Below, piece after piece: positions 36,790 to 64,000 of a stretch of 64,000 nucleotides of DNA. Under the pieces are notes generated by a model. The model worked only from the letters and a program-made list of their open reading frames with translations, had not been told where the DNA came from and did no database searches. This DNA comes from Klebsormidium nitens (taxonomy: Eukaryota > Plantae > Klebsormidiophyceae). A program made the translations under genes and the position numbers. The stretch's first letter is position 1; each line of letters starts with the position of its first letter. Where the stretch lies: the NCBI GenBank assembly GCA_000708835.1, contig DF237223.1, positions 51,269 through 115,268 on the forward strand. The letters are read 5' to 3'.

Positions 36790-37241
36790 NNNNNNNNNNN
36801 NNNNNNNNNNNNNNNNNNNNNNNNNNNNNNNNNNNNNNNNNNNNNNNNNNNNNNNNNNNNNNNNNNNNNNNNNNNNNNNNNNNNNNNNNNNNNNNNNNNN
36901 NNNNNNNNNNNNNNNNNNNNNNNNNNNNNNNNNNNNNNNNNNNNNNNNNNNNNNNNNNNNNNNNNNNNNNNNNNNNNNNNNNNNNNNNNNNNNNNNNNNN
37001 NNNNNNNNNNNNNNNNNNNNNNNNNNNNNNNNNNNNNNNNNNNNNNNNNNNNNNNNNNNNNNNNNNNNNNNNNNNNNNNNNNNNNNNNNNNNNNNNNNNN
37101 NNNNNNNNNNNNNNNNNNNNNNNNNNNNNNNNNNNNNNNNNNNNNNNNNNNNNNNNNNNNNNNNNNNNNNNNNNNNNNNNNNNNNNNNNNNNNNNNNNNN
37201 NNNNNNNNNNNNNNNNNNNNNNNNNNNNNNNNNNNNNNNNN
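36790..37241. other. Assembly gap (about 450 N)
   Basis: Run of n characters. Confidence 1.
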
Positions 37242-37453
37242 NCACAGATAAGCTTGGCTGCATCGAACGGCGAAGCCGAACACAACTTATCCTGAACGGT
37301 AACATCGGCTCACTGAAGCCGATCCATCCGGGATATTACGGCGTCTTGCAGACAGCCACGCAGTGCGTCGTTAAGACGTAACCACCGCCGTTTCGCTAAC
37401 CCGCAGGTCAACGAAATCCTGTCGAGAACGAGGTTAGGCTTAACCAGTCGTAA

Positions 37454-40400: not shown

Positions 40401-41888
40401 GGCCGTGCGGGCGCTGGCCCTTCGTTGGTGCAACTTTCGCAAGGCCCCGGCCCACGGGAGCAACGCGCCTCTGACGCCGGACGAGTTCGTGGCCATGCGG
40501 GAGGAGCTTCCGGCCAACGTTGCCGCTCTGGTCGACTTTGTGATCGAGTCGGGGGCTTGTGCCAATCCCACCACGTGTGCGGTCTGCCTGGGGGTGCCAC
40601 GGCGGCCGTGGATGCAAGGGTTTCTCAAGGAGGGGCCCGTGGGGCCGACCGGCTGGTGCCCCACGCACTTCCAGCCATACGGAGCCCTCCTCCACGCGCT
40701 GCTCATCCCTCGCTACTCCTGGGTGTTTGGGCGCATCGTCACCCTGAAGTTGCTGAGACACGTGTTGCTGGAGGGTCCTCTCGATGCGCGAGGGATGGCA
40801 TTTCTCTCCAATGACGGCCCCATGCTAGCGGCCGTCCTGCGCCTCCATCCAGTTGCCGGCGGACAGTACGCATTTCCAGCAACGCTGCGGCCGCTCGTGC
40901 GTGACATCTATGCCACGAACCTCCTCTGCTTCGAGCCCAGCGCAAACCGGCCGGGTCCAGCCTTGCGATCGCCACTGGCCGCCCTCCATGATGCGACCGA
41001 GCACCTCTGGGCAATCGAAGGCGAGAAGCTGAGGCTTGCGGGTCAGCTAGAGGGGGCGGCCATGGAGTATGCCGAGCAACGTGGGGCGGCATTGAAGGGG
41101 GCTGCCAACTCGCTTCTGTTCGAGCTCGAGGTTTGAGAGCCTTTGTGCTACGGAGAGGGCGGCTTCCTTCAGGCGCCGTCGGCGGCCTATACTGAGCGGG
41201 TCGGCGCCGTCTCGTCCTACTCCTTTCACCCCCTGCTGTACGGCCGGCCTCGGTTCGTCGACTGGGAGGACGAGGAGGGCCGGGGGAAGAGGGGGTCAGA
41301 GGAGCGCCCAACCCAACATTGCAGTGCGCCAAACCCTCTGTCATCAAAAGGGCGGGCCGGGATCTTCATTGCGTGCTGCCAAGACCGGGCGCCCCTTGGG
41401 TACCACTGGCTGAAGGGGACCGAGTCGGTGTCGGACCTTGGTACGGTGCTCCTGACGCGGTTCCATTCAAGACGCTGCGGGGCATGACCGTCGTGGAGGA
41501 CGCTTCGTGCAACGCGCAAGAGTGGTTGCTGAACCGGGTGCCCTCGATGGCCAAGTATGTCTGTTTTGTTGTGGACAGATTCCATAGTGGGCCCGTGAGC
41601 TGCGCGCGGTCTGGCGCGAAGCGCTACGCGACGCACACGTGTGCCCCGACACTCTTCATCGACTCGTTCCCACAACACAGCCACACGATCACGACGGCCT
41701 CGGAAGGCATCAACTCGGGGCTAAAGAGATGCGCGGCCAGCCTCCAGCAGATCACGAGCATCAAGCGGCTATTGAGCAGGGTTACAACGATCCTCGACAC
41801 GTTGTTTGAGCGATCAAAATACGCAGTGTATTGGAGCAATACTAGCAATCCTTTGAGAGACTCGATCAAGAGGGGGCGAAGTCAATGA
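37454..41888 (+). pseudogene. KDZ (Kyakuja-Dileera-Zisupton)-type transposase with SWIM-like and CxC-type Cys clusters; disrupted
   Basis: SWIM-like CSSINC..RCRH. CCMVAYDGR|EDGIFNFS is joined by a GT-AG intron at 38820-39801. Catalytic-type motifs are VITFDGT, GIFIACC...GYHW...ESVSD...LLTRF, VVEDASC...LLNRVP, FVVDRFH and ASEGINS. Stops at 37640 (TAG) and 41134 (TGA); frameshifts near 38328 and 41463. Confidence 0.75.
38787..39722 (-). pseudogene. XPA/Rad14-like Zn-finger plus C-terminal-domain protein, nested antisense in the transposase intron; one in-frame TAG at 39150-39152
   Basis: CAIC-x17-CLKC followed by LTTTEARKKYEIKDL...RYYREVDVRVLAIRERGG...EARQTK...RRKR resembles XPA (CxxC..CxxC..ITKTEAKxxYLL..KLYL..V...A...WG..E.R). 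ORFs 39150-39722 and 38787-39017 share one frame. Confidence 0.6.
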
Positions 41889-41898
41889 GGTTGTTCTG

Positions 41899-42456
41899 TA
41901 TTACTCTATTACTCATTACCCACCTCATCAAGTTCCTTTTGTGTTTTAACATCTGTCATGTGGTGAGGAGTGCATCGAGAGGGCTTCATATCCGTAAAAA
42001 GAACGGGTAATAGGGTAATAGGGTAATAGGATGTATGGTTCAAGGCTTTATTCATGGGTACTGTCATGTGTGTGTTGTGTTGTGATGAGGGTAATAAGAG
42101 GGTAATAAGCTGTTCTGTACTCACACACTTCGAAAATTTGTCCCTATTACTTCTCACGACACTACATGCTTCTTCCAATCCCTCTTTTTACACCCACACA
42201 TGAAAGTTAGAGCCGTTGGTAGATTCATGATGGGCCGCAGTTGAGGTTCTCCTTTATTACCCTATTACTCATTACCCACCGCCTCAAGTCTGTTTGTACA
42301 TCTGTCATGTGGTGATGGAAGCTTCAAGGGGTTCCATATTTTAAAAAACAATGGGTCATAGAGTAATAGGGTAATGGAATGTCTGGTTTAAGGCTTCGTT
42401 CATGGGTACTGTCATGTGTGTGTGTTGTTGTAATAAGGGTAATAAGAAGGTAATAA
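41899..42456. repeat. Two copies of a roughly 210-bp module carrying inverted triplets of TATTAC(C/T)C / GGGTAATA octamers (iteron-like)
   Basis: Copy 1: TATTACTC-TATTACTC-ATTACCC at 41899-41921, (GGGTAATA)x3 at 42005-42028, plus two more at 42089 and 42100. Copy 2: 42255-42277, 42353-42376, 42437 and 42448. Confidence 0.85.
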
Positions 42457-42468
42457 GCTATTTGGTAC

Positions 42469-45294
42469 TCAATCTCTTTGGAAAGAATCATCTTCTGGCC
42501 TTTCTCGAGTCTGTACTTTCCCGTCCTCACCTCGTCTCACTTCCCACATATGACGGTTGGAGCAGAACGAGCATTTTTGATCCGCAACGGTTTTTCGCGA
42601 CCTTCCCAAAGCATCAACCAGCTCTTGAAGAGCCGTCGGTTCCGTCATCCATGGGCCTTCCTTGTCTTCCACGTACTCGAGTCGTTGCCAGGTATCAACC
42701 CACTCCACGGTCGAGCTCAGAAGCTTCCCTTTGTGCAGGGCCTCGCAGATAGCGCCCTGTGGGGCGAACCACCATCCCTTGTGGGTTCGAACCTTCTCAA
42801 TGGAGCGTGCCTGCGGTCGCATCTTGAAAACGGCATTTAAAGAGCGCATCAAGAGATTAATGTCGGTATGGCGGTCTTCTTTGATGTCCATCTGATGCAA
42901 AAATGTGTCATAAGTCCGCTTGATGTCCGCTGATGCTACCCACGTCTCCAAGGACGGGTGAAAGCACCCGTTCTCAAGCAACGCTTGCATCATGTTGACA
43001 TGGGGTGGAATCGAATGTTCCTTTAGGCCTTCCCCCCAAGCTGTAATTGGCATCTTTTGAGGATTCCAGTCGGAGATGTCAATGGATGAAAGATACCGAT
43101 ACATGTAATATGCGGTCATGGGTTTTTCCAACTCTTCCACAAGTGCATCAAAGTACTCTTTGTCGCCCATTTTGGTATCTGATACTTGCTGACAAGAGTA
43201 TCGTCGGTCGTCGGCCTCCCGTTTCACTGGCGAGTAATTATTGGTCGTAAAAACGAGGTTGCTCTTGTCCTGCACGCTGATCGGATCTTGGCCTTTACGC
43301 TCCAAGCACGTCGTCTCCTGAGTGATTTGCGACTTCATCCGATCATTCATCCGGAACGCCCCTCCCCAATTTCCTGCCTCGTCAAAAGTAATGAGAAGCT
43401 TATTGGCTCCCAATGAATTGAATTTTCCAATGACCGTGTCGATGTTGTTGCAATAAAGATAGTACTTGGCACCAAGAATCTCGCGTCCAATGAAGTCCCA
43501 CACTACAGACTTTCCGCACCCTTGCCCACTGCGGAAAACAAGAGCCACTCCAACCTTCCTCCAAGGCTTCTGCACGGCGTGCGCCATCCAACTGATGTTA
43601 TCGGTGAATCGTTCGTTTGAGCCATCGCACACGATGTTGCGAAGGTGCCACATAAGCTTTGGCATCTGTACCTCGCACTCCATGAACTCCGCCTCCGTCA
43701 ACTTGTGGTCGAGCGGTTTGAATCTCAGCCCGGAAAACAGATTGAAATGTCGCGGGGACCCCTTTGATGGGTCCGGCTCGAACACGATCTGATCGTATTC
43801 CCGCCGCTTAGGGTTGCTCTCCCAAAACCTGGCAACCTCTTTGTTCTTCCCAGGTAGGCTCTCGAGCTGGAAGTTTCTGCAGACCTCCAGAAAGTCCCGG
43901 CCGGACCGATGGATGGTCTCGTCGGACTCAAGCTTCCCGTTTGCGTCTCTTGAGTAGATTGTCTTTAGGTAAACCGCCTTTGTCGAACGCACAACGGCAA
44001 AGTAATGGTTCATGATCTGCAAAGTGAGATCGTGTAAGTGCATCTTTGCTCTCTTTGTTCGCTCGTCATCTTCCTTGCTCTTCTGTTTCCCGACGCTTTC
44101 ATCTGCGGGCGGCACAAAGGGGAAAATGTAGCTTTCGCAAGTTTTGAAAAGTTGTCCTTCCGCTCTCAAAGGCAAACACTAGGGCCAAAAGTACACGCCT
44201 AGCAAAGGCTTCGGTCGATCAATGCAATCCGGAGACAGACAACGGTACACGAAGACGCACCCGTTACTCAAGACGCTGAATTGATTTGAATGGTGTTGGT
44301 GGCCGTTCAAGCACGTTCGCGAGCCGTTGGTTCTAAACTTGAGGATCTGCCACCCGTTCGGGGTCCTTTTTCCAACGCCATTGAAAATGCTAGAGTCGCC
44401 TGGCACTCTAGCACGCAGCAACCTCTCAATCTCTTCACGCGCTTGTTCCAGTCCCGGCAATTGATTCCATTCCGTATCAGGACGTGCGGTGCTACATGGT
44501 GCCGCATCTTCTGCTCCGGGTGTTGACATTGGAGCTTGTGGCTTTGCAATTCGTGGTTTCTCATGGAACGCAGCGTCGTTCAAGAATTGGACCAACCAGT
44601 CTGGCATCCCATTGCGAGGTGCCGTTTCGTCCGATCCGCTCCAATGGTAGCCATACTCTCTTCCCGCTTCGTCAAAGTACTTTGAGGGAGAGGCATAAAC
44701 TATCCCATCCCGGCCTCTTCCATCCAAGGCCCATGTGCACCCCTCGTAAACGACCGTTGCAAAGTTTGTATCTTTGAGCAGACCAGAGGTCTTGCTTCGG
44801 CTAAAATATATGTGCAATCCAAATCCCAATCCAGTGGTTGCCTTTAGGGTCTCAACGGCTCCGTGCTGCTCCACCAATCAACTCCAGAGCATTGTGCCTG
44901 CCTCTTTGCGCCCACCCTCATCCTTTGAAGATCTTGCGGTGGCATCGCAATCGACGACATAGAGGTCGGATACGCCACAGAGCACCGCCAGAGCATTAAC
45001 ATCCAAGGCGGCCTTGTTTATGTAAGAGTTGATACCTTTCTTCCAATCTGCTAACGACTTTGTCAACGGGGTATAATTGCCACCACTGAAGCTTGTTTTC
45101 TTCTTCCCTGCAACAATTTCTAGCCGGAGCGGGATGGTGTACATGCCCTGTTTATACAGAGATCGCATGCCTTCAACGATACAATACTTGTGCTGAAAAC
45201 GTGATTCGACTGGAGCATCAGGGCTGGGCTCGTAGAGCTCGCCGTCTTCGGTGATGAGCCTGAGCCTCTTAGGGCGTTTCAAACGCGTGCTCAA
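42469..45294 (-). pseudogene. Bifunctional primase-polymerase (Prim-Pol) + Zn finger + NrS-1/D5-like SF3 helicase; 942-codon frame with 2 internal stops
   Basis: NALAVLCGVSDLYVVDCD, TTGLGFGLHIYF, LDGRGRDGIVYASPS, MPDWL, then CLNGHQHHSN..YRCLSPDC. Helicase motifs: FNLFSG, Walker A SGQGCGKS, Walker B LITFDEAG, motif C FTTNN and DDRRY. In-frame TGA at 44878-80 and TAG at 44179-81 split one frame. No introns. Confidence 0.85.
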
Positions 45295-45322
45295 ATTTTC
45301 TCACCACGATAGTAATAGCGGG

Positions 45323-45753: not shown

Positions 45754-46797
45754 TCAAAACTGGATTTTGGATCCGTCATGATTATAATGCTTTTCATAGA
45801 ATTTCTGAGCAATAGATGCCGTATGGAGCATTTGTTGTGCCACTCGCAAGCTTGGCGCATCTTTCATCGCATTTGACACGCAGATTTTCCGCAAAAGGCA
45901 ACTTCCAACTGCTGCATCTTTGAAGAGATTGGTCGAGCAGAACTTGCTCATGTAAATCTTGGTCATTGGCTGATCGGGAGATCTCATCCTCGATAAAAGG
46001 TACTTGCGTGGAAATGCGTGAAGGCTTTCAGCAATCACATTGATGGACCGCGTCGACATATCAATGTTTGTCGCGCCATGGTGTCGGATCGTTTTGAAGT
46101 CCTTTAGGACGAGACGAAACTGGTCCTTCTCGTATTCTACCATGTAGTTCTTAGACGATGACATGAGCTCCCGCGCCTCAGTGGTCTTGATGTCCCCGTG
46201 ACGGACGACCGGGCACTCTGAGTAATCATTACGAACGGCCGGCTGGTAGGTGAACAGACACAGGATGAGGTGCTGGATCAAAATGATCTTGTCTTTGATG
46301 GTCAGATCCTCTGGTTTCTGTGGTAGGATCCTGCGATTCACGTATCGTTGCAGCTCTACCCGGCGTTCATTGATCTGATCGAACGTCTTCCAATTGGCTG
46401 CCTCTTGCACCGTTAGCTGTTGGGGCGGAGGCCGTGCTTCGTCCATCATTTTGCGGACCGCTGTGAACCGTTGGTAGTACGCATCATAGAGTCGTTTGTC
46501 ATTTGGGAATGCTTTTTTGCACACGACCAGCAGCGGATTAAGGCCAGTGCTCTGCATACTGAGTTTAACGGGATACGTCTCTTGAAAGTACTTGATGACC
46601 GCATCGGAGTCCTCGATCCACTCAAGATCATTTTAGTCGTTCCTTTTGTGCAAGCCCTCAAACAAGCGCATCACGTGCTTCACGTATTGCGCGATCGTGT
46701 TTTGGTTGCGATCGCCGTCATCAAAGACCTGGCGCAACAGCCGTTCCCCGTTGGTTACGGAGGTTACACGTTTCGTGCTTCCGCTGGGGTCCTGCAT
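45754..46797 (-). pseudogene. Tyrosine recombinase of the type seen in Polinton-like viruses and virophages; one in-frame TAA at 46633-46635
   Basis: Catalytic-type motifs in order: LFTYQPAVRNDY (R), DFKT (K), LLRKI (R), QMLHT (H), QKFY (Y). ORF 46633-46836 is in frame with 45754-46557 (HKRND*NDLEWIED...). Confidence 0.75.
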
Positions 46798-48134: not shown

Positions 48135-48394
48135 TCATCAGCACAAACCCTTTCCCTAAGTACGTACGGAACCCTCGCCGAGCTCAGTGAAGAAGCGGGC
48201 CCCACCATGCTTTACAAGCACAAGGTCTCTATGATCGTATGCATACTATCAGCTTCGTTCAGTTTGGCTTCTACAACTCCAGTGAACGATGCTTGTTACA
48301 TGTGCAGTCTATAGAGAGTAATTAACACCGCGTGGCCCATCCGACAATGATCCGAGACGACCATACCCATCACAATCCCGATTTATGATTGACT

Positions 48395-48740
48395 GCGCGT
48401 ACCCACTAGCGGGCGTTTGAAGTCTATTAGAATTTGGTCACGACTGGGTTCACGCGACGAACACGCCACTGGATATCCTTGCAATTGATAGCGCGTACCC
48501 ACTAGCGGGCATTTGGAGTCTATTAGAATTTGGTCACGGCTGGGTACACGCGACGAACACGCCACTCAATATCCTTGCGATTGATAGCGCGTACCCACTA
48601 GCAGGCATGAGGATCTCTAGAAAGAATCGAAAGCTGNNNNNNNNNNNNNNNNNNNNACCACTCAATTTCCTTGCGATTGATAGCGCGTACCCACTAGCAG
48701 GCATGAGGATCTCTAGAAAGAATCGAAAGCTGCCGGGTAC
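48395..48740 (+). repeat. Palindromic cassette array B (4 units, exact 96-bp period; contains a 20-N gap)
   Basis: GCGCGTACCCACTAGC left arms at 48399, 48495, 48591 and 48687, with (C)TGGG(T)TAC-type right arms. The unit is the reverse complement of array A units (gggcatttggagtct versus agactccaaatgccc). Confidence 0.9.
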
Positions 48741-48911: not shown

Positions 48912-51900
48912 CTAAGACTCGTTGCTACGCCGGGGCGCCGGAATGCTAAGCTCACACTTCACGACTGGGTCGGGCTCCGGGTCGGTCACCTCTGCCAAAA
49001 GGGGGTGGCCCGACGGTCGGGCCAGGAGAGGATCGAAGCTGGACACATCAACCGAATCTAGAAACTCGCGAACCCTGGGCTCGAGCTCAAGCCGATGCTT
49101 CCACCAGATGTGCACTTCCCGGAACTGCAGCTTGGCGAGCTTGCCCATGCGGTCCACCCCGTCAGCGTCCAAAACGAGGGTGTGGTCCTTCTTACCCGCT
49201 CGTGACACCCCCTTCTTGTAGCGCCCCCGGCTCCCCTTGACCTCCCGCAGCCTCACTTGAAGGCCCATGCGACCCCACAGCTTGTTCAGCGCGTCTTGCA
49301 ACCTCTCCCCCGTCCACTCCTCGTTCCGCGGAGGGAATTTGATCCCGCCAAACAGCTCGGACGCCCACTTGCCCGCAATCGAGTCCGCTTCCCGCTTGAA
49401 AAAGGCCGTCTGGAGGAGAGCGTCCCGAAGCCCATCCTTTTTCAACGAACGTGTGGGGTTCGTGTCAAAGGGGTGCTCCAACCCCATCGCTTTGATGACC
49501 TCCCGTGCGACCTTCGCCATCAGCCGGTCGTGCATGACCTTCCCATGCCCCCCCTCCTCAAAATTCTGGTCCACCAGAACCTTGAGGAGAAAGGTCAGCT
49601 CGCCGTAGAAGGGTTGCTTGACACGCTTGCAAGCCAGCGTCACAAAGAAGTCACTGAAGTCCGTCCAGCTCGAGACCTGCTTGAGGCCGTAGAATTTAAG
49701 GCACTCGTATCGCGCGACCGCCAGCTTCTCATCTCCCTCGTCCCGGCCAAAGTTCCGCTTTTCCCTAAGCTCGCTGTACTCGTCAGCCCGGAGAGCCCTG
49801 GCAGAAAACAGCCTCTGAAGGTCGAAAGTGGAGGGGAGGAGCCGCGTCGAGGCACCCTCCTCTTTTGGGAGGACGATCTCGAGCGTGTGACCAGCCTTTG
49901 CGATCTGCGCTCGGAACTCGTGCACGAACCGGGTGTTCGAGTTGCGCCTTTCAACCTCAGTGTGCGCAAGCGTGCGTAGAAAGTCGTGGTCCCTGATGTG
50001 GACAGGTCCCACGTCTTGCGCCCGGACCTTGACAGTCCGCATGAGCTCCGTCCGCTTGGTGTCGCAGAAGGAAAGGTACGCCAGCGTCTCCCGAAGGTAC
50101 ACAGGTCGGGGTGGCCGGAACATGCCCTGCGTAATGAACGAAGGGGCGCTTAATCAAACCAGATCTTTACAACAATTCGACATGAGGACATGTTATGAGC
50201 CTCGTCTCTATGCAACTGTCTGAGCGCACTACTTCAAGCGTCCAATATCATTCGCTCAAAGCCCTCCACTAAAGAGAAAGACCCGGTCAAAAAGCAGACG
50301 CGTGTTGTACCCACAAATACCAGAAGGGATTTTAAGCCAGAGCTTTGGGTTAAACGGGTAATGTACTTTCCTGCTCGAGGGAAGTTGTAATCAGTCCGAC
50401 TGAGGTGCGCATTGATGACACTTGGGCGAAAAAAAAAAAATCAGGTCTTTGAAGTCGCTGCTCCTGGGCGGTTTCATCAGCAGAAAGAGCATGCCAACAC
50501 CGTTGACAAGAATGTCCTGAACGAACGAGCTCACCTTTCGTGTGGGAGCGGGTCGCGACTCCTGGAGCTCCGTTGCAGGGCCAACCCCGATGGTCCCAGC
50601 CTGCGCAGTCGAGAGAGTTACGAATCAGTCTTGCATACAAGCAAGCTCATGAAACACTCAGACCCCAAAGTTCAAGCAGTTGGGGCCTGTCTTGGTCTGT
50701 TTGAAGAGGCTCTGAAGGATGCCCTACAGATGCGGAAAGTGTGACGGCAATCCCACTCGATATAGCGCGTACCCACTGGCGGGCATCGAGATTAGAGGGA
50801 ATCAATGGCCGGCAGTGGGTACACCGTGCTGAAAAGTGTTGGCCATACCACTTAAGATAGCACGTACCCATTGACAGGCATTAGGATTTTAAGAACAAGC
50901 CGCAACAACTGGGTACACTGCGCCGAAAGTGCTGTGAACAAACTCGCAACCAATCTGCATTCTGGCAGCAGTTTGGCACCCGCCACTGACAAGGCTTGCA
51001 CTGAATTGGACAGAGTAGCCGCAATGAGGTCGTGACGAGCACGCCCACCTCTCTCGAAGCACCTGGTGCCGCTTCCGGATCCTCGAGCTCCGTCCCCTCT
51101 TCAAGCTCACCAACCTCGGGCTGCGCGAACTGCACAACAAACAAACAGATATAAGCGCGTAAGCGACTCGACTGCAGAGATCAAGCACTCTAGGCTTGTC
51201 ATGATCGATTTGAAAAAAAGGCATTGAAGGATGCCGACAGACAAAACCGAAGCCACAATTGCATGCGAGAACTAGCTTGGCACTGTCACTGGACGGTTTT
51301 GCACGCGCCAGACCAGAGAAGCCGATACGGGGACGCCCACCTCTCCCAAGGCGCCTGGTGCCGCATCCGAAGCCTCTGCTGCCATGCGCATCTTGATTCG
51401 ACCATCTCCAGGCTGCGCGGAGGGACCAGCCTGCGCAATCGAGGACACAGACTGCAGTGATCGATGAAAGCCAAGCAACCTAGGCCCGTCTTTGTCAGCT
51501 CAAAAGCTCGAAGGCTCTAAAACAATGACGGCAGTCAAAAATTGCAGGCTATTATCCACGAGAACAGCGGAGGGTCAACGCCCGCCAGTCGGTTGCTAAC
51601 AGGGTGCACACGACACTTGAGCTTACCTCTTTCAAAGGATCCGATTCTACCAAAGCCTCAGTTCCCGTCCGCTCCTGGTTCTCATTGTCTCCAGGCTGTG
51701 CGGATGGGCAAGCCTGCGCCAGATCTAGGCACAGGTCATCAAACTTCAGGTGGGGGCCAAACGGCCTGGACCTATCCAGTCAAGTTGCAAGACTCTACGC
51801 TTCGCAGCAGGCATGTTAACAACAACGCTTCACAAATTGATAGCGGGCAGTATTTCTCAAAGCTTGCAGTCGTGAGATGAGGCTAATCTACCTGGATTTG

Positions 51901-54900
51901 CAACAGAGGAGCTTACCTCTTCTGGTCGTCTGACAGCTTCCGGGGGCTCTGCTACCGTGCGCTCCGAGGACAGCCCACCTCTAGAGGCCGCGGCCTGCAG
52001 GAAGGGAAAGAGAACAATTCAAAGGACCTCACACGCGTTCCTTTAAAACAGCTGGAAAGATGAACGCCGAATTGGCAGTTGAATGGAGGTGTGCGCCAGA
52101 TTCTTGAGCCTGCGATTGAAGTTGGCCTTGGTCGATCCACCGACCTGCTCAAAGGGAAGACCCAGGCTCTCGAAAGGGACGTAGACAGCGTCCTCCACCA
52201 GCAGGGAGATGCCCCCCTGAGCGTAGCACAGGATCAGGGGCCGCTCGACGCGTCGCACGCGCAGAGAGGCCTGCCACAGTGCCCGGGCCGTCGTGCTCTT
52301 GAGGCACATGTACAGGTACATTGCGTGGAACCAGTCGTGGTCAAAATTGACCCCGGCCTCGATGCTGGGGCTGTACATGAGGAGCCGCACTTTCCAGTGC
52401 ATGCCCACGTTCTCCAGCTTTCGCATGTCGTCGCCAGAACTGAGGGCCGTATGCACCAAGATGTCGCGCTCCTCAAGGAGCCCCAACTCGAGAACGCGCT
52501 CCCGGATGCTGTTAATCGCATTGGACGACATGCTTGCCACCGCCACGTTTCGCCCTTGCCGGAGATCCTCGAGCAGCTGAGCCTGCCAGGCGTTCGCATC
52601 ACTGCACACCCGGTAGGTCCGGGGCACGGCCGCCCCTCTATCATTGATGACCAACTTTCTGCGGAGGCCTGCCATCTCAAAGAAGTCGTGCTCTCGTTGC
52701 GCATAGCCGTCATCCAGAGCGAGAACCCTGCGGGCGTTCGGGATCAGCTCAAGGAGAAATTCGCTGGTTTCTTGCCCGCGGCGGAGAGTGCTGGAGGAGA
52801 GATGGGCCAAGATGCTCGCAATCTCGTCTACGACCACGAGGTCAAAGGGAGGCACCGGGCCGAAACCGTGCGGCCGAAGCTGGAGCAGACTGTCGACCTG
52901 AACGACGATGTGAGGAAAGAGCTGCCGGTTCTGCAGAGCCGTAAGACTCCACTGCCTGTCAGGGCTGTCCCAACGCTGGTGTTGAAAGTCCGCTTTAAGA
53001 TCGAGGTAGTTGCGGAAACCAGGAAAGCGCTCCTTCAAATCCTTTGCCTGGGCTACGCGGTACGAGATGAAAAGGATTGTCGGAGGACGCCCAGGGTGAG
53101 CACCATTCAGCTCGTGGTAGATGAGATGGCTGGTGAGGCCGGTTTTGTTGGTGCCGACAGTGGAGCGGATGGAGAGCAAGGGGAATTCCGGGACCCAGTC
53201 TCCTCCCAATGAGGGCGGAGACCCAAGCCACCTGTGGAGAAGAGCAGTGGAGTGTCGGAGGACTCTCGAAGATGGCACGACTTGCAGCATATCTCCTTGC
53301 AAGAAAGCCTGGCGTCAGAGCAATCTGGACCCTTAAATTTGGCATCAATTGGCTAGCGGGCGCGTACATCGCAGCCAGACAACGACAACGACGATATGAG
53401 CACGAATGGACTGGTGTTCCGTTCTTCCATCCGCCCCACGAACCGAATTGAAACATAAAAGTTCGACAACCCGAGAACCTAGAAACCCAAGAGAAGCTCT
53501 TCAGCAGACAGGTTTTACCTGGAGGAGAAACGGGAAGACGGGCCGCCTTTGAAGGAGCAAAAGACGTGTTCAAATTGCCTGTCCTCCTGCCAAATTGCAG
53601 ATTGCAATAGTAGAACACTTACTGGTCAATGACGGCGTTCAGCTTTAGCTCGTCAGTTGGGGCAGAGCGCCCCGCTTCCACCGCCGCCAGCTTCTCAGGC
53701 GAGCTTGCGTCCTTGTTTCTCTGCAGAAACGGCACGTCGATGACGACTGCCCCGGCTCGGAAGGTCTCCTCCTCCTCGTACAGGTTGCCCAGAAAGAAGG
53801 CCTTCGAGCGACAGGTGTCGCTCGTGTGCCCCCCCTCCGGGTTCACGCTGAAGCAGAGCGCAAAGATCCGGTTGCCGTCTGGTCCCAGGTGCAGCGTGAG
53901 GTTTTGGTTGTTGTCATGGAGACGCCCGGTGTAGCAGGGCTCCAACCGGTCGGTGTAGTTGTACCGGTCAGGCCCCTCGCGGTATGCGGTGGGGTGCAGC
54001 TTCTCACGAAGAAGGACCAGCATGCGCTCCCGAACGAAGTCGGTGTAGCGCTCGCCCTGCGCTCCAAGTTCTGTCAGCGCGCGCGGCCCTTGCGGCGCCC
54101 GGAGTGCACGAGGCAAGCCAGCGGGTACGACGCACGGCAATTTGATGACCTGCCGCGCCTGCCAAGGGAACAAAAGAGGGTCAGGTCTCCACTTTGTGCG
54201 CATAGGTGCATTGAAGCGCGGCCAAGCATATAGCAAACGCTGAGTCGATCGTCGCACACCACTTTTCTGGTCAGAACGCTCTACAATCTGATCCGAGGAG
54301 CACCTTTTTAGCCGGGAACTCAAAGCAGAATTCTGAGTAGAGCGGACAGGACCAGAGAACTTTAAGCAGCCCTCACCTCGCCGGAGGCAGCCTGTTGTCA
54401 GCCGAAACGAAAGACAATTGGGCAATTGAAGACAAGGACCACCTTTTTGAACGGATACATAAAGAAGACTCCTAATTAGAGCAGACACGACCACAGAAGG
54501 GGCAGACCTCGGCTTGCTGACGGCTTGCAACCGAAATGAAGAAAGTCGGACGGTTTGGAAATCGGTCAAGGCTGAAGCTGCAGCTGCCAAGACGGTAGGA
54601 AATCAGGCGGGAACCTTCGAGGAAAGTGACTGCTTTTCAAAACAATCACAGTCGCTTCTTGAAGGACGAAACAACCGCTTACCCTCGGAGGCTCGAGCCA
54701 CGTCACCAGTCCGTCCCGCCAGGTATGCGCCAGGTTGATGAACTGCAAGGTGCTCTCAGGTTTCTCAACCTTTGAGCACCCAGGGGCGCGCCAATCCCGG
54801 TCCTTGGAGTAGACGCTCAGGTCGATCATCGCCGCCAGATCCGGCGACCACGGCTTGATCTTCTCCTTCAGGCGCTCCGCCAGATGCTTCGCCCCGTCCT

Positions 54901-55432
54901 CGAGATTTGAAGCAAAAACGAACTGGGGGGAAGGTGTGCTTATGACCAGGTGCAGGCTGAACTTTGTCTGGTTCCCACTTGTCAGCCAGACGAAGCTCTT
55001 GCTCGGCAAGGTCAGCCCATAATCGGACTCAAAGCGCGAAGAGATCCACTCTTCCAAGGCGCGAATCACTGCCTCGGTGCTCATCTGCTCCCTGACTCCG
55101 TCGGCTCCGGTCCTGAAGGGATGCCCGTCCTTGCCATCTATGTCCAAGTACGGCTTGCACGGGAAGCCGTGACGGACGATCTCAAAGACGTGCTTATGCC
55201 CTTGAAGATGGGGCTCAGCAATTTCCCAGCTTGGGTACGAGGCAAAGCTGCGGTAAGGGATTGGCCGACCAAGCTCATCGAGCTTCTGAGATGGGGAGTG
55301 CAACACGACCTGCGCTTCGTGATTGAAGAGGCTGGCATGCTGCTGCATGAAGTGCTTGGGACCTGGCAGCGACTTATCCTCCTTTGAGCTTGTCGCATGG
55401 AACAGGGTCGTGCCATGCTTTGCCTTGCGCAC
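48912..55432 (-). CDS. Multi-exon AEP primase - Zn finger - UL9-like origin-binding SF2 helicase - C-terminal domain fusion (core part)
   Basis: Exons: AEP up to donor 54683, Zn exon 54158-53623, helicase 53308-52145, short phase-0 exons 51994-51956, 51451-51341, 51129-51049 and 50600-50535, and last exon 50126-48912. The junction between the Zn exon and the helicase exon is unresolved. Confidence 0.65.
50760..50920 (+). repeat. Palindromic cassette array C (2 units), intronic
   Basis: GTACCCACTG 50769 with CAGTGGGTAC ending at 50822 (54 bp); second unit 50864-50916. Confidence 0.85.
52145..53308 (-). CDS. Herpes UL9/NCLDV origin-binding-protein-like SF2 helicase exon
   Basis: LLSIRSTVGTNKT (variant Walker A), ILFISYRV, IVVQVDSLLQL, FDLVVVDEIASIL (Walker B), VLALDD, LLMYSPSIEAGVNFD and WQASLRVRRV. 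This motif order is typical of the Herpes_ori_bp family. Confidence 0.8.
54683..55432 (-). CDS. AEP (PrimPol/herpes UL52-like) primase catalytic exon
   Basis: HVFEIVRHGFPCKPYLDID (motif I DxD), KFSLHL (motif II SxH), MIDLSVYSKDRDWRAPGCSK (motif III); donor AGG|GTAAGC. Confidence 0.85.
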
Positions 55433-55449
55433 AACGCTGTAAGCCCCGG

Positions 55450-58400
55450 ACTTGAAGACCTCGTTTCCAGTGCAAGCTTCAGATCAGGGCGGGCGGAGGC
55501 ACCCGTATTCCGTCAAAGGAAGCGCTGAGGTCAATCAGGCTGGGCGCTGCGGCGACTCGAGTTGGCGCTGCTGCTGTTGGGGTCGGTTCTTGGACCGGCT
55601 CTTGCTCTTGAGCCTCGGCTCCGTCGCTGCGCAAAATTACAAAGAGAGCCGTTAAAGATTGCTCCCACAGCAGAAAAGCGATTAAAACTAATCAAGAAGC
55701 TAACCCACAACTACATGTGAGCATATGCAGAGGCAATCTGACACAATCTGTGGTCAGAAACAAAGAAACAAGGCACACTGCCAAGAATTGTAATTGAAAC
55801 ACGGTTCTTGATCATTGCTGAAGGACTTCATTGATTGCAGCAACTTCAGTGCTCATACAGTGCTCACATAAACATCAGCAGAAACAGAGTAGAGAAGACC
55901 AGGGGGTGATGGCAAAAGCTCACGTTTCCAAGGTCTCCAAAGCTTGAAAATCTGCAGCAAAGCCATGTCGAGTAGGCGGGGAGGGGGTATCGTGTCGAGC
56001 TGGAGAGGAGGGTGGGCCGAACGTCTCCTCCTCTCGGGCTGCCAAGGTAGCTCTTTGCTGCTGGCACTCCCCAAAGAAATCAGCAACCACCCGCTCCTTC
56101 ATTGCCCTGCGCCTGCTGCGACGGCTGCCCGTGGCCTGCTCGGACAAATCGCGTGCGACTCCAGCTCCTGTAGGACAGAATTGTGAAAAGATTATGATCC
56201 GGGTTTGGAGTAGTAAAGGTTCTGACGGGCTCAGGGAGCTTTTGAAAACTCTGAGGAGAAGCATTGCAAAGGTGTTTCGAACTCTTCTTTCACGCTCGTG
56301 CGCTCGCTCAGGCCCTTTGGCATCCGCGATTCCAGCACCTGCGGGACGAGTCCTGGGGATTTTACATTTTGGGCTCTTTTTGAGATGTGAACGGGGCTGC
56401 AGGTCGGGGCAGAGGAGCAGGACATCAAGGAGCTTTGACCAAGAGACGGCTTTTCAAGACCGAAGTGAAAAGAACAATCCTTCTTTCTCGCTCGCTCAGG
56501 CTGCTCATCTTATGAAGCACTGAATTATCCAGACTATCCAGAATCGACACGGACTTGCTGTAGTTCGCAACCCAACTTTGACCGCGAGTCGTGGCCGCTG
56601 CGAAAGTAAGCTACTCGGACACACTTTCCGAACCCACCCACAAGCTCTGAGGAGCAAAGCGCCCTTTGACAGGGATTTTAAATCTAATCGACCAACCAAC
56701 GTGAGTACTTCTTTTCAAGAAAGGCCAGGGCGGTGAAGCCACGGATCTGCATGCTGGTACCTGATTGGCTGAGAAACTCGGCGTTTCGATGAGGAATTCA
56801 AATCCCCCTGTAACGATAAGCAACTACTATCTTGGGCTAACACGAGACATTACTTAACGTGCTGTCCACCCCCCAGCGCCCTCACCTGCAGCTGGTCGAT
56901 CAGCAGGTTCTGCTCCTGCTTCTCCTTCTCCATCTTGGAGACGGCGTACGTCGTGCGCCGCGTGACCACGATCTCGCCCTTGACCCGCTCCTCCACCTGG
57001 CACAGCGTCGCCCCCAGCCGGTCCAACTGCTCCGCGCACGCGCTCCTCCAGGTCTTCACCGCTGAGCACGAGCAGAGCAAAGGTTGCATCATCTCATGGA
57101 CCACTAACGAGTTCTGCACAAACGATTGCTTTTAGGCGGCACGATGTCAATGTCTGTTGCACGGCAGGTCCGGCTCGTTGATGAGTGGCTTGACACGCAT
57201 TGCGTGTCCCAAAAAGTCAGCGCATGGGCTCACCCGATGCGAGAAGCGACTGTGCCTGCAGCTGGCTCGGCCGCAACGCCGCTGGTACTCTCTGAGACTT
57301 TCACGAGTCTTCTTCTTCTCTTCGAAGGGCCAGCTACCGGAGACACCTGCATAACCCTCTTTAATATCAGTACAAAGATCACGCATGAACAGACTCGGAG
57401 AGGTCAAATTGGCGGTCCATCTCAACGATTCGATCGCAAAGCGTAGATCACACCCTGCGTAGCTCGTACAGAATGAGGTACACTGAGCGCGAAGGAGCCT
57501 GACCCGCTCCGACAGCCTCTTAGTTCCTCCACTCGATGCGGGCGCGTTCATTTGAGCTTCGGCATGTGCAATCAAGGCCTCGAGCGCGGCGCCTACGTCC
57601 AGCCCCCGGGTTGCTGTCTGCAAGCTCAGAGCGAGTTAGCCTCCATCAAGGACTGCCCAGGGAAGTAACGGAAGGAAATGGGGGTTTATGAGATGTGACA
57701 AGTGAAGCGGGGGGAGGGAGGGGGGCGCGTGTTCAGGACTCTCGACTCTCAACCCGACATGATTGACCTATAGAGTTGACCCTGACATGTTTTGGTCAAC
57801 CAGACCTGCAAATCTGGCGCCAGATCCCCTAAACCCTTGAAAATTGCAAGCCAAAAAGCCTAAACTCCTAAAGATCATAAAACCTTGGACCCTAATCACA
57901 ATTGACCCGAAACTCGAGTCACGTGCAATTCGACCCTAAGCTACAACATGGATCCTAATGATGACGGGTAAAAGGGGAGTCAGATTCGCACTCAATTTCG
58001 TGCTCTAGCGACATGCAAAGCGAATCTACAATTAAGCAAAGGGCTGGGCCACACACTTCGTGAGGGATTTGCGTACCTCAGCTCCTAAAGCACCTTTGGA
58101 AAAGTCGGTCAGAGGCGGCATGGGCAGTTCTGCTGCAGGGGGGCCGTCAGCTGTTGGCAGCGCCGCGGCAGGTGCTTCCTGCGCACCATGCAAGGTCGAC
58201 AGTTGTGAGTGAGCTCTAGCTCGCGACCATGGGGCCAACCGAAGGTTGCTTGCACGATTGAAGACAAATTTCAGCCGTCTGGCAGCCGGCAAGTGGTTCC
58301 CAAGGTGGGTGGGCATCCCCAATCCCACTTAGAATGGCGCGTACCCACTGGCGAGCATTGGGATTCTTAGAAAGAGATGGCCGGCAGTGGGTACACCGAG

Positions 58401-61400
58401 CAGGAAGTGCCCAGGCTGTCATGTCTGTCAAGTCCCCACTAGAACGCATTAGGATACTCAAAAAGAAATGGCCGACAGTGGGTACACCAAGCAAAAAGCG
58501 AAAGGCCAGATTTGTGAGAACGGCGCGTACCCACTGGCGCACATTGGGATTCTTGAAAAGAGGTGGCCGGCAGTGGACCGTACACCAAGCAAAACACGGA
58601 CGGCCAGATTTGCGAAGACAGCGCGTACCCACTGGCGCGCATTGGGATTCTTCGAAAGAGATGGCTGGCAGTGGGTACGCTTTAGGTGTGCACCTGTAGG
58701 CGATTCTCAGAAACCCGTGAAAAGTACTCGTCAAAGGACTTCAAAAGTTGTCATCACGTGCGGCCCCCACACTCGAGCCAGAGCAGTTCTCACCATCACT
58801 TCGGGAGCCGCTTCAGTAGGGGCAGCCGACAACAATGGCTCTGTCAGCTGGAGTGCATCAGCCGTGCCGGGGGGGCGCAGGGGGCGCTTCTGCAACTCTG
58901 CCGGCGGGTTCGATCTGCGCACAAGCGAGACAAGCGCAGATGGGCATAAGTACGGCTTTCTGTCGCAATTTGCCAACTCGAAACGGACAGAGCGAGCATG
59001 CACGGTACAGAAAAAGAAGATTCGTACGCAGAGGTTGATGACAAGTCCATACTGCGCTTACTCGCTTTCGCGCATTTGGTCTAATTTTGGGCGCAAGGGC
59101 AAACCTTTGAAGGGACTGGCGCATAGATCCTGAAGAACTGACGAGTGGCAGGACATACCTGCGGATCCGAGGCGTGTTCAGGTAGAGCGGCGGACTGGAG
59201 CGGCTCCGAGGTAGGGGGGGCGTCAGCTGTTGGGAGAGCCGGGGAGGGTGCCAGTGCAGTGCCGCCCTGCGCGTGCGCGAGATGGCCGGCAATGAGTCCA
59301 GATGGAGGGAAAGAGTGACGACCATACCACCCGTCATAGAGCGTACCCACTGGTGGTCAATATGAGTCTAAGAACCAATTCGACAGCACTAGGTACACTG
59401 TGTGAAGGGGCGACGGCCATCCCAGGCAGGATAGAGCGTACCCACTGGCGGGTATTAGACTCTAAGAATCAATTCGTCAGTGCTGGGTACACTTGCAAAA
59501 AGGCCCTGTCGACGGCCATACCACCCGAGATAGAGCGTACCCACTGGCCGACGTTTGAATCTTATAAAGAATTGCCCGCCAATGGGTACACCATACCAGA
59601 CGACCATGCCCCGCAAAAGCTGCTTATACCTAATTGAGCATACCCACTGCGAAATTCTAAGAACGACGAAGAGGCCAGCACTGGGATCATGTGCGCTCAA
59701 ACTACGAACACTTGAGGCCAACGTTTCCACTCAGAAGCTGCTGAGGGCACTCGACACTGACCTGCTCGCCGTCCGGCTCGCCGCCGCCGCCTGACACAAG
59801 CAGCTGCTCCAGCTCCTGGGGCTGGGCCGGCTGGTCTGCAGAGCGGGTTGATGCCTCTGCCCCTTGATTGCGGTTCTGTGCATGAGAAAAGAATGTTCAA
59901 TTGCGACACATAGAAAGGTGCAAGTTTTGCAGTGCGCACGAGCACCATCAATCAGAAAATGCCACAGGCTTGAGGAATCATGCATGCAAAAGAACATTGC
60001 TGTAGACAAAGGCCATACCGACGAGCATTTACCTTCTTCCACTCTTCGAAGAAGCGCTGAGTGTCAGGAGGTTTTGGCCGGGCACTCTCCTGAACCTCCT
60101 GCATGACGAGGATGTCATGAGTGTTCGACGCAATCACTTTCGCTCTCACATACTCGTGAACAGTGACACGAGTGCATTACATGGGAGCACGTGACATGGC
60201 TCTCAGTTTACCGATAGATCGCTGCTTACCTGCCACGGCGGAATGTGGAACTTGGGTCCTTCTGCTAAGCCACTTGGGGTGTACGGCTTCTGATACATTC
60301 CCGGGTTGCTCTCAATTCCCCCAATCATGAGGAGGGTGTCTGCATGGCAGTGACACAACGCTCAAAAAGTGGACACGAGGATGCCCCACGGCCGACAGAT
60401 TTTTGATGCAGGTTTGGCAACATATGCTATTGGCAACATAGCGTGGGATGCCATGCGGTGACTGCGAAACTCTATCCAAGTCCTCACCTATTAGACCCTT
60501 GGTCAGTGGACCTGACGACCAGAACACCTCGGACTCGCCCCAGTAGGCCGGAGAAGCTACAAGAGCGGAGAAGAGCGGAATGGTCAGTCACAAGACTGAC
60601 TGACGCCGCTGATCATTCAATACGGGGCGTATGTAAGTAGGTATACTCAAGTTCAGTGGCTGAAAGAAAGTTAGGAAACAGCCCGCTGCATGCCCACTGA
60701 AAGAAAGTTGGAACACAGCCCGCTGCAAGCCCAAAGCAGGGGCGCTCATCTGAGTTGCAGTAATCTGGCCCAGCATCTTACCCGGCTTTGGATGTCCGAA
60801 AGGAAAAACATGCGCCTTCCCCAGCACCGCCAGATTCTAACACGAGATCAGACGTCGTTGAAAGGAGGGTTTGTCGCTCACCTTGCAATGCGCTCCTCAC
60901 CAGCACGCTCTTCGTGGCAGTCGGCTGAACCCCAAACCTGGCGCTCCCGCTTAAACAGCGCGCACAGGCCTTGTGCGCCGTGGACGGGAGGCTGCCCGGG
61001 CTGCGCCTCGTCATTGGCGGTGTGCTGATGGCAGGCTGCGCCAAGATCGCAGTCCGAGTGAGAGTCGCTGGCGGTCGCACGGGGGACAGTTGCGGTGGGA
61101 CTGTGCTGGGCACTGCGGTCAGCGCACGCGGACTCTGGAAAGGAGGCGCTCAAAGGGGTCAGATGCCAGCAGGGAACCTGCAGTAGTCCTCCGAATCGTG
61201 CGACATGTCAAGGGCATGCACTCTGCCCCGGCCATAGCTGACAAGATCTGTGTATCAAGAAACACCCATTAAAATTCTTAACAAGCAAGAGGTGGTTTCT
61301 TGGTACACGTCCGTGATAAGCTGCAGAGTTGACGTTCCACAAAACGTTCTTCCTTGGAACACTGCTTTTGGGGCGCCGCTTGGAAGACCTCCCAATGTTG

Positions 61401-62717
61401 CGCAAACCAGAAGAATCACCTTCCATTTGCAAGCCAACCAGTCTGACAGCAGCTGGCCTGGCACTCTGCAAAAGCAGGCTTCTTGTTGACATTCTGAGCA
61501 CTTACCTGCCGCTGCTGTCCATGACCAAGGAGCAGCAGGTGATTTGGCTCCCATCTGGTTGCTCGTCATCAGGACAGGCATGGTTCGCTTTCCCTCGCGC
61601 CTTCTCGCGCCCCTGAACCCATGCTGCAACAGGAGAAGGGGGCAATCAGCGTCCTGATCCCATGCTGTAATAGGAGAAGGGGGCGATCAGCGTGAGGGCT
61701 GCCGCCATGTAAAGGCCTGAACGATCAGGTCGAGCGATAGCTGCACACAGAGTGTGTGTGTGTGTCCTCTCACCTGCGCGGTCCCCATCGATCTTGAAAC
61801 AACCCTTTGATGGGCCGTGGCTCTCGTAGAAGTATGTAACAGCCCCTCCCCTCTTGCTCCCGCAGAGCCCATATTCTGCGGTCGTGTCGCACTCGCGGCA
61901 GTGAATGGCATGCGGGTCTGGAAAGAGAAGAGGGGAATCATGCAGGGCCCATCCGACTACCCCACACCCCTGCATGCAGGACCGGTCATGCCACCAAGTT
62001 TTGGCGCTATCCTTAAGGAAAGGGTTGGCCAGACCTCGGTTCACCTCCCAGCCATGCCATCAGACTTTTGGCAATGTACCATGAAATGGCCAATTGTCAT
62101 CTTAAGAATCAAGTGGTCAAAACTTGGTACACTTTCCCCCCCGCACGCCCAGGCATGCCATTCAAGAATCTGCTTGTCGATGTTCATGAAAGATAAGCGA
62201 TCCGCTGTTCAATTTGGGATGTACTCTTTTCCTGAAACAGTGGTATGTTTGATGGGCTGATGTTTGTCTGTTTTTTGAAAGCGAAACAGAATGATCCTTG
62301 GTCCTCCTGCTTGCAGGGCCAGCAACCACAGGTTCCCTGACCTTAAGAAGAGCTGGCTTTTGAAAAAGCAAACAGACAGTCTTTTTGCTCACTGCGTTCT
62401 GCAGCCCAATCCAAAGCTTCTTTGAGCACCCGCGCATTCTGCCGCTTCGCTTTCTGATCAGCAGCGCTGAAGAATTGGCCTTGTGGGGACTTGCGAGCAG
62501 GCTTCCCCTCATGCTTCAGTCCCTTTGACTGCTGGCACCGCCGGCGACGAGGGGCAGGTGCATCATCGCTCTGCGCATTGACAGCAGCGATCAGAATCTC
62601 TTGCCTTTCTGCACTGATTGTGATGCGCTCCCTATACTCTGCAGCGCGTGCGAAGCGTGCAGCCTGGCAGTCCCTATGATCAGACTTGGACCTGCCACAA
62701 GGCCGGCTTCTTGCCAT
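55450..62717 (-). CDS. Upstream exons (low-complexity, coiled-coil, Cys-rich) probably belonging to the same transcript as the AEP-helicase gene
   Basis: Series of GT-AG exon candidates, several phase-compatible: about 55490-55620, 55925-56170, 56885-57060, from 57617 (3' end unresolved), 58077-58180, 58790-58890, 59159-59270, 59710-59790, 60030-60150, 60880-61170, 61505-61620, 61774-61917 and 62343-62717. Confidence 0.45.
58335..58680 (+). repeat. Palindromic cassette array D (4 units), intronic
   Basis: Cassettes 58341-58394, 58432-58485, 58527-about 58584 and 58625-58678. Units 1 and 4 are perfect GTACCCACTG-34 nt-CAGTGGGTAC. Confidence 0.9.
59320..59690 (+). repeat. Palindromic cassette array E (4 units), intronic
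   Basis: GAGCGTACCCACTG at 59343, 59438 and 59537, plus GAGCATACCCACTG at about 59640. Right arms are (A/G)GGTAC. Period is 95-102 bp. Confidence 0.9.
61774..61917 (-). CDS. Exon encoding an EsV-1-7-like Cys/His motif
   Basis: HCRECDTTAEYGLCGSKRGGAVTYFYESHGPSKGCFKI resembles CxxCxxxAxyG...fCxxH..Gm.v, except that the third Cys position is F. Confidence 0.35.
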
Positions 62718-63900: not shown

Positions 63901-64000
63901 GGTCGTTAATCCGGGAGTCGAACAGAAGTACCTACTAATAGCCTAAACAATCTGACGACTATAGCCGTGAGCAAGGGTATTCTAAGTATGATACCACTAT

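Follow-up and report, generated by a model that had tools for sequence, protein, structure and literature searches.

The gene on the minus strand at 62717-48912 of the window, the 64,000-nucleotide stretch of Klebsormidium nitens DNA analyzed here, is best regarded, with slightly better than even confidence, as a transcribed but decaying copy of a replicase gene from a KDZ-linked mobile element of Klebsormidium. An archaeo-eukaryotic-type primase domain (AEP), a Zn module, a UL9-type SF2 helicase and a C-terminal domain follow each other in a single open frame of 1,346 codons, preceded by a long 5' extension. The parts of the gene are as follows.

62717-48912, minus strand: primase-helicase gene, 24 exons and 23 introns, from the joints of spliced contigs
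55924..62717, minus strand: exons 1-15, 5' extension with basic N-terminus, Cys/His cluster, 2A-like motif and low-complexity duplicated exons (contig joints, translation)
60296..60322, minus strand: 2A-like motif GGIESNPG followed by M, of putative activity (translation)
54683..55626, minus strand: exon 16, end of the 5' frame (stop at 55481-55479), then PrimPol-type AEP in another frame (joints, translation, profile and fold of relatives)
53623..54158, minus strand: exon 17, C..H..C..C Zn module (motif conservation across paralogues and outgroup, joints)
52145..53231, minus strand: exon 18, UL9-type SF2 helicase, Walker A Gly replaced by Asn (Pfam PF02399, E=2e-13; alignment)
50535..51994, minus strand: exons 19-23, acidic linker made up of short exons, some of them duplicated (78, 87, 90, 81 and 66 nt; joints, pairwise similarity)
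48912..50126, minus strand: exon 24, C-terminal domain and probable DNA-binding part (alignment, model of the relative P0014)

The sequencing runs behind this gene model were taken as RNA because their contigs skip the introns exactly. Comparison of the joints with the window yields 23 introns of 131-718 nt (median 297), all bounded by GT and AG, including the junctions WLEPPR|ARQVIK and PFEQ|...|GMFRPP, which the first-pass annotation of this DNA had placed correctly. Twelve joints between 50126 and 57503 were recovered in all four runs, each inside a single contig of 4,890-5,396 nt, and those 5' of 57503 in three or four of the four, except for 61505-61135 (two of four runs in one set, three of four in another) and 61773-61624 (run X19 only). 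The doubtful junction at 53623-53308 is thereby settled as 53622-53232 (IDQ|WLG) in four of four runs, and the suspected link to exons up to 62717 is borne out by spliced joints spanning 62717-48912. Since the joints 54682-54159 and 53622-53232 both occur in every one of the four runs, the viral-type primase and the origin-binding-type helicase are, as had been proposed, encoded in one frame of one spliced transcript and not separately. Clean spliced contigs of the gene were present in six of six runs, from six studies, and the RNA contigs extend past exon 24 to 48702. The label "intron-rich" applies to the gene as a whole but not to its conserved domains: 15 introns lie in the 5' extension, six in or around the low-complexity linker and two at domain borders, and none of the 23 introns of the spliced model falls inside the AEP, SF2 or C-terminal domains. 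The introns of the viral gene thus seem to have come mainly with the expansion of linker exons, the catalytic domains staying whole.

The domain assignments of the first-pass annotation were largely upheld. AEP motifs I (DxD), II (SxH) and III (D) are present in the alignment, and so is the Zn module after the AEP, whose C, H and C align across outgroup and paralogues, the fourth ligand being aligned only within Klebsormidium. A profile of 23 full-length relatives matches UL9 (4e-35), human PrimPol (2.5e-13) and pox D5 primase (0.0014), and the helicase exon matches Pfam Herpes_ori_bp (PF02399) with E=2e-13 and 49.8 bits at a cut-off of 20; the sequence-profile match to UL9 is confined to the helicase part, with none over the C-terminal domain. 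All structural statements refer to a model of the relative P0014 (pLDDT 87.7, pTM 0.87, 47 sequences) and not to the window protein; an AlphaFold model of paralogue P0006 from eight sequences reached a pLDDT of 33 and was not used. The P0014 model agrees with the PrimPol fold (Z 22) and with UL9 residues 23-833 (Z 25, 535 residues aligned, rmsd 14.3, for the whole model, the C-terminal domain not being folded alone), and matches proteins of Bodo saltans virus, Indivirus, Samba virus and Marseillevirus over their length (E 1e-59 to 4e-39). The product of exon 24 is 38-41% identical to the paralogues and 22% to P0014, and a two-copy fold of this domain, made without the alignment, scored 0.00 and is no evidence either way. 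The term "one-protein replisome" was overstated because no replicative polymerase or single-strand binding domain is seen in the gene, although the fusion of primase and helicase stands. As to the N-terminal module, exon 1 is 59-62% identical to the N-termini of P0002, P0003 and P0013, and the 2A-like motif recurs in seven paralogues, four of them with NPGP, and in P0057. The canonical 2A (StopGo) motif, (G/H)D(V/I)ExNPGP (PMC8623073), is not matched, since the Asp is missing in all copies and the final Pro in the window copy. Both Klebsormidium lineages have this conserved module, and none was seen in the intronless relatives.

The gene had been described as apparently intact and free of stops, which does not hold for its 5' third. 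Three to four frame breaks are located there, at about 61560, 60960, 58870 and 55482, the last one also in RNA, and no single frame runs from the ATG at 62717 to the stop at 48912 in the spliced model. Exon 16 (55626-54683) matches the window letter for letter and shows no splicing in four of four runs. The upstream frame ends there with a stop at 55481-55479, and the AEP is read in another frame, whose first in-frame ATG is at 55348; an intron rescuing the frame within this exon was rejected because the exon is unspliced in all four runs. The paralogues read through the point at about 55482, further frame changes relative to them occur at about 61560 and 60960, and another break, at about 58870, is due to exon 10 (121 nt). 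The helicase carries the SF2 motifs, but its Walker A reads TNKT in the window copy, without difference in the RNA contigs; the GK is kept in 23 of 23 outgroup rows and eight of eight paralogues covering the site, so that, judged from the alignment, the non-canonical motif is a defect of this copy and not of the family. The window copy nevertheless keeps 94 of 116 outgroup-conserved columns, comparable to the paralogues (0.69-0.87). Because of the frame breaks, the Walker A change and the broken neighbors, the view of the window copy as intact or as part of an active element is not supported.

The confinement of all three to four breaks to the 5' 2,320 of 6,358 nt, sparing the core (p 0.02-0.05; 0.05 or 0.018), also fits selection for a shortened protein. 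The gene may accordingly be a domesticated host gene, its 5' extension now an untranslated leader and its AEP-Zn-SF2-C-terminal core translated from 55348 as a PrimPol-like repair or restart enzyme, with an ATPase possibly weakened. The long terminal branch (0.33) combined with conserved catalytic motifs, the absence of a close paralogue (best 61% identical), the clean spliced contigs in every run and the host-like GC3 of 0.74-0.79 would agree with this. However, the full cDNA has 27 ATGs ahead of 55348, a start at 55348 loses the residues equivalent to P0014 15-28, which are part of the PrimPol-matching fold, and Walker A carries Asn in place of Gly. Moreover, a one-base gap at the exon-10 break in a single low-depth X19 contig (depth 2.9) hints at recent decay, but may be an error. 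Domestication is therefore rated as unlikely, and of the two origins offered earlier, replicase of an element or domesticated gene, the former fits the family better because ten other loci exist and because of the KDZ linkage.

A search for paralogues retrieved these ten other K. nitens loci, on scattered scaffolds, plus a sister type, with identities of 49-57% over the helicase for the eight scored. The K. nitens family forms one clade (100/100) with the window copy basal, and joins the sister type with 98/94. In this tree, which was calculated without herpesviruses or mirusviruses, the family is placed outside a clade (100/98) that unites the AT-rich NCLDV and virophage proteins, a group of different composition. 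Splicing and family tree together support the long nuclear residence postulated at the outset; the family probably propagated as nuclear DNA, and introns would therefore have been gained, partly by tandem exon-intron duplication in linkers, and kept. IMG/VR scans with the Klebsormidium alignment, P0014 and the box pattern described below found nothing, and no IMG/VR contig was closer than 31%.

The neighbors of the gene on the KDZ side are listed below; those at 42.5-46.8 kb contain stops, in line with their previous designation as pseudogenes.

36349..41879, plus strand: KDZ-family transposase gene, broken by frameshifts, an insert of about 0.9 kb and an assembly gap, 70-90% identical to a K. 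nitens family
41866..42484: GGGTAATA-rich repeats in the interval where the KDZ and SF3 genes converge (repeat scan)
42469..45300, minus strand: Prim-Pol + SF3 (DUF5906) primase-helicase pseudogene, stops at 44880 and 44181 (Pfam, translation)
45754..46797, minus strand: ORF with one stop (translation)

The last of these, tentatively tyrosine-recombinase-like by its motifs, gave no Pfam family and no locus match. The KDZ label comes from relatives (ESM Atlas 0.95, weak Pfam CxC4/KDZ), as Pfam and ESM Atlas left the window's own KDZ pieces unnamed. The broken KDZ gene lies 7 kb from the primase-helicase gene, and two of the ten paralogue scaffolds carry one of the 11 K. nitens KDZ matches two locus tags away (009560010/030 and 008920010/030; p 0.002-0.013, an optimistic value because both gene types may favor small repeat-rich scaffolds); the other eight showed none in a single search. 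A JGI primase piece and a KDZ protein also appear to share one contig of 77,436 bases. The window KDZ gene may itself not be the partner of the window primase-helicase, because, at up to 90% identity, it is young and faces the different, SF3-type primase-helicase in convergent orientation, whereas the primase-helicase copy is old (53-58%). Four flank comparisons revealed neither terminal repeats nor the defined ends with 7-8 bp target-site duplication by which a KDZ transposon is recognized; the right end may lie beyond 64000.

About as improbable as domestication is a viral relic, left by the insertion of a giant virus or Polinton-like element and amplified through segmental duplication, in which case KDZ proximity would merely reflect shared repeat-rich regions and the arrays listed below would be an unrelated small repeat. 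NCLDV core genes have indeed been described from K. flaccidum contigs (PMC5294986), the fusion is a typical NCLDV feature, the nearest intronless relatives are housed among D5/C962R-type genes, and a similar repeat is found in another transcript. Against such a relic argue the absence of capsid, polymerase and packaging genes from the 16 window ORFs scanned, the N-terminal module with its 2A-like motif in both Klebsormidium lineages, and the scaffold overlap with KDZ.

A further feature of the region is a family of inverted GTACCCAC boxes beside and inside the gene.

48388..48732: array of ~96-bp units with GTACCCAC boxes at the 3' end of the gene, including a 20-N gap (repeat and box scan)
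50734..50919: two inverted-box units in intron 51048-50601 (box scan)
58331..58691: four box units in intron 58793-58179 (box scan)
59309..59649: three to four box units in intron 59761-59267 (box scan)
34721..35408: further array of this box family, oriented the other way, some 0.9 kb upstream of the KDZ gene (box scan)

The window contains 32 box matches (2.2 expected), 30 of them in these five arrays, all beyond 34.7 kb, and one in the host-gene part at 1-34.6 kb. They form 12 inverted pairs 33-34 nt apart, with a spacer AT content of 0.41-0.61. The box shares 9 of 11 letters with HSV-1 oriS Box I (null 0.003), a likeness noticed post hoc, and hairpin folding was strong in three of five units tested, as expected of palindromes. 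No box arrays were found in 110 related loci, with at most two matches per locus. In L026, the closest of the intronless relatives, a repeat array and a palindromic contig end likewise come after the gene.

In the favored interpretation as an element replicase, the C-terminal domain of an intact copy would bind the paired candidate boxes of the 96-bp arrays, as UL9 does oriS, the SF2 motor would open the spacer between them, the AEP and Zn module would prime synthesis by host polymerases, and excision and integration of the element would fall to the KDZ transposase. Only tentatively can this be extended to a capsid-less, self-replicating DNA transposon combining a KDZ transposase with an intron-laden primase/origin-binding helicase that fires at herpes-oriS-like tandem arrays; if true, UL9-type origin recognition persists in a transposon of the plant lineage. 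If the KDZ link holds, it would document a virus-to-transposon route toward a replicating element lacking a capsid or polymerase of its own. With a spliced family in a cultivable alga and candidate boxes at hand, origin binding and priming are open to direct test.

The AEP-UL9 fusion itself is not new, being known from mimivirus R8, ASFV pF1055L, OsHV-1 AAS00940 and mriyavirus SF2_hel (bioRxiv 10.1101/2024.02.29.582850; NCVOG0024 in PMC3493329). The literature searched identifies no origin for the giant-virus fusions. These proteins share the domain order AEP, Zn module, UL9-type SF2 and C-terminal domain with the Klebsormidium gene, which differs by its 23 spliceosomal introns, the N-terminal module with 2A-like motif, the acidic linker (missing from intronless relatives), about 11 copies in a cellular genome and the KDZ linkage. 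HSV-1 UL9 and oriS (PMC13483431) are similar in helicase homology (4e-35), in the fold match of P0014 and in inverted boxes around a spacer (9 of 11 letters), but UL9 contains no primase, and the Klebsormidium boxes have a longer, only moderately AT-rich spacer (0.41-0.61) and are arranged in tandem arrays, with binding and dimer formation putative. The neighboring transposase family scores as one of the KDZ (Kyakuja-Dileera-Zisupton) DNA transposons, which are known to carry cargo such as TET/JBP (PMC12730594); no primase-helicase cargo was found in a literature search. GT-AG introns in virus-type genes resident in the nucleus are shared with punuivirus GEVEs (mean 2.5 introns per intron-bearing gene; 10.64898/2026.10.09.758095) and mirusviruses (terminase with 20 introns, enrichment in morphogenesis genes; PMC12768974), whereas in Klebsormidium a replication gene carries them, chiefly in its linkers, with no capsid gene seen. 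A latent intron-bearing virus with capsid genes beyond the window and this gene expressed in latency, for which spliceosomal introns in punuivirus latency genes, the intron-rich mirusviruses and primase-OBP fusions in virophage and PLV-like contigs might be cited, is very improbable in view of the intact-looking host-type genes over 1-34 kb, the pseudogene neighbors, the scattered paralogue scaffolds and a closest IMG/VR contig no nearer than 31%. The virophage and Polinton-like virus genes concerned (L006, L010, L011, L017, L024) likewise fuse a primase to a UL9-type helicase in small replicons, but are single ORFs beside capsid or packaging genes, with a Prim-Pol/PriCT-2 primase and 23-31% identity to the query relative.

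As judged from transcript-like contigs of six runs of six studies (none of the 24 runs carries an RNA label on its record), the AEP primase and helicase exons belong to one spliced transcript, as the first-pass annotation had proposed. The contigs skip 23 stretches of 131-718 nt, all GT-AG and on the minus strand, and the words of 48900-56200 are present at a share of at least half (0.57-0.64) in 18 of the 24 runs, which is close to the exon share of the region. A single contig of 4,890-5,396 nt, found in four of four runs, leads from about 48.7-48.9 kb to 57.3 kb or further and covers the C-terminal, linker, helicase, Zn and AEP exons; in run X8 the long contig extends past 59.2 kb. The junction previously left open near 53623-53308 is placed by the run contigs at 53622-53232. 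The proposed link to exons up to 62717 is also made by contigs, but the first exons are connected solely via a chain of short ones, the joint 61773-61624 occurring in run X19 only. Introns 57590-58106 and 60529-60911 are retained in some contigs alongside spliced forms, and at 61612-61693 a 41-bp stretch is duplicated in tandem, which supplies a second acceptor. The introns are distributed as follows:

5' extension, minus strand: 15 introns
In or around the linker, minus strand: 6 introns
Domain borders, minus strand: 2 introns

Every linker exon has a length divisible by three, and these exons show partial mutual similarity (82-88% over 32-50 nt), as do exons 9 and 11 (85% over 39 nt); this likeness suggests that some introns arose by tandem duplication of exon-intron units. 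The paralogue P0013 ends at the residue equivalent to the 53622 donor, a hint that this intron may be common to both.

The gene had been described as apparently intact, with no stops in its predicted exons, which has to be revised. Along the cDNA of 6,361 nt from the ATG at 62717, paralogue matches switch frame at ~61560 and ~60960, the frame changes at ~58870 in exon 10, and the upstream frame ends within exon 16 at a stop (55481-55479) across which the paralogues read continuously. An assembly error as cause of this stop is ruled out, because four of four runs read exon 16 unspliced and letter for letter identical to the window; at the exon-10 break, one X19 contig gives a weak indication of a one-base gap (depth 2.9). 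What remains open is a frame of 1,346 codons between 55483 and the stop at 48912; its first ATG is 55348, with 27 other ATGs upstream. All breaks lie within the 5' 36% of the cDNA (p 0.05 for three breaks, 0.018 for four). This copy is transcribed and spliced yet probably unable to make the full protein. In a frame that is not the gene's, exon 14 (56886-57061, minus strand) shows a GC3 of 1.0 across 58 codons and reads like a coiled-coil peptide; it is likely a captured host exon.

The helicase is the only part of the gene that Pfam names; a profile built from the full-length sequences of 23 relatives (22 from outside the family plus the paralogue P0006) matches UL9 (4e-35), PrimPol (2.5e-13) and pox D5 (0.0014), upholding the earlier AEP and UL9-like helicase calls. 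Of the 116 columns that 23 outgroup proteins conserve, this copy keeps 94, a share comparable to that of the paralogues (0.69-0.87); AEP motifs I-III are among those kept, as are SF2 motifs II, V and VI, and the Walker A Gly is replaced by Asn. In structure comparisons, an intronless relative, P0014, stands in for the protein of the window: its model (pLDDT 87.7) matches PrimPol over 216 residues with Z 22.1 (rmsd 2.9) and UL9 residues 23-833 over 535 residues with Z 25.0 (rmsd 14.3), and giant-virus origin-binding proteins also align along their length. That this copy encodes a shortened domesticated enzyme appears unlikely.

For both the gene and the neighbouring transposase, all close relatives that carry an organism name are from Klebsormidium nitens, so that the host of this eukaryotic window is likely Klebsormidium. 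Ten further K. nitens loci (P0001-8, P0013 and P0195; P0055 and P0068 represent the tails of two) were found, as was a sister type, P0032; the full set of listed motifs plus the C-terminal domain is present in two of nine aligned paralogues. The paralogue is the first gene of its scaffold in five of eight cases and the scaffold is shorter than 30 kb in six of eight, suggesting that adjacent repeats break the assembly. A search of 1.84 billion representatives yielded 80 proteins at E < 1e-30, among which single ORFs of 1,030-1,170 residues with 31-39% identity are frequent. In a tree of helicase domains (37 of 135 candidates), the members of the Klebsormidium family group together (100/100), with this copy in the basal position and the P0032 type as sister (98/94), both nested in a group of metagenomic proteins and separate from AT-rich giant-virus and virophage proteins (100/98); a 79-row FastTree is consistent with it. 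No donor is assigned, because the root is a midpoint only and composition differs among groups. Remoter fusions occur in viral contigs of 0.5-1.0 Mb, virophages and one PLV-like contig. We consider a duplicated viral relic improbable, and a latent virus hardly credible. Four virophage contigs with a Sputnik-type capsid (L006, L010, L017, L024) contain a primase/UL9-type helicase fusion. The intronless P0014 gene (AEP-OBP) is the last on a 28.5-kb contig; directly behind it, a repeat array and then a perfect palindrome of 50+50 nt (L026 13431-14007) close the sequence, possibly as a hairpin end of a linear replicon or an assembly artefact.

The neighbourhood includes the following:

36.3-41.9 kb: broken transposase gene, converging on a Prim-Pol/SF3 pseudogene across GGGTAATA repeats

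An ORF beyond this pseudogene (arrangement 36349-46797) is presumably recombinase-like. The broken transposase is 70-90% identical to its family, which scored as KDZ in the ESM Atlas (0.95; 20 of 30 hits within the top KDZ set) and gave Pfam matches below cut-off to CxC4 in six of nine members and to KDZ in one of nine. Two of the 11 K. nitens members share scaffolds with paralogues of the primase-helicase gene, each two tags away from the paralogue (p 0.002-0.013, assuming 1,415-600 scaffolds; the text of PMC4052687 gives 1,814).

A 10-bp box occurs 32 times in the window versus 2.2 expected, and 30 of these lie in five arrays, located in three introns, at the 3' end of the gene and, inverted relative to the others, at 34.7-35.4 kb. 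Twelve inverted box pairs are spaced by 33-34 nt; in HSV-1 oriS, as described in the text of PMC13483431, two boxes flank an AT-rich spacer, and Box I as printed there equals the box in 9 of 11 letters (null 0.003, noticed post hoc). The arrays could also be end repeats bound by the transposase, or an unrelated small repeat; one other transcript bears such a repeat as well.

On balance, the gene family is most likely the replicase of a KDZ-linked element, a reading we favour by a modest degree of confidence. The replicase would bind the boxes, melt the DNA there and prime synthesis, the primers would be extended by a host polymerase, and the transposase would integrate the element. The primase-helicase fusion itself is already known, as outlined for R8, pF1055L, OsHV-1 and mriyaviruses (10.1101/2024.02.29.582850), and its setting in Klebsormidium is new. 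NCLDV genes are recorded for K. flaccidum in the text of PMC5294986, related work is found in parts of PMC3493329, PMC11244446, PMC12768974, 10.64898/2026.10.09.758095, PMC12730594 and PMC8623073, and the accessible text of PMC4889955 does not mention UL9. Among the top 20 literature matches, in the main text of openly accessible papers, nothing concerned the Klebsormidium family or KDZ with a primase-helicase.

Small ORFs at 35623-36147 and 47700-48134 (minus strand) flank the arrays, with no Pfam family and no match in the fetched loci. The KDZ gene carries an insert of ~0.9 kb (38880-39783) with an opposite-strand ORF (39150-39734) lacking a Pfam family. Upstream of the gene, 63300-64000 contains degenerate repeats spaced 250-355 bp and may be close to an element end; a 25-nt inverted match connects 63314-63338 with 42986-43010.
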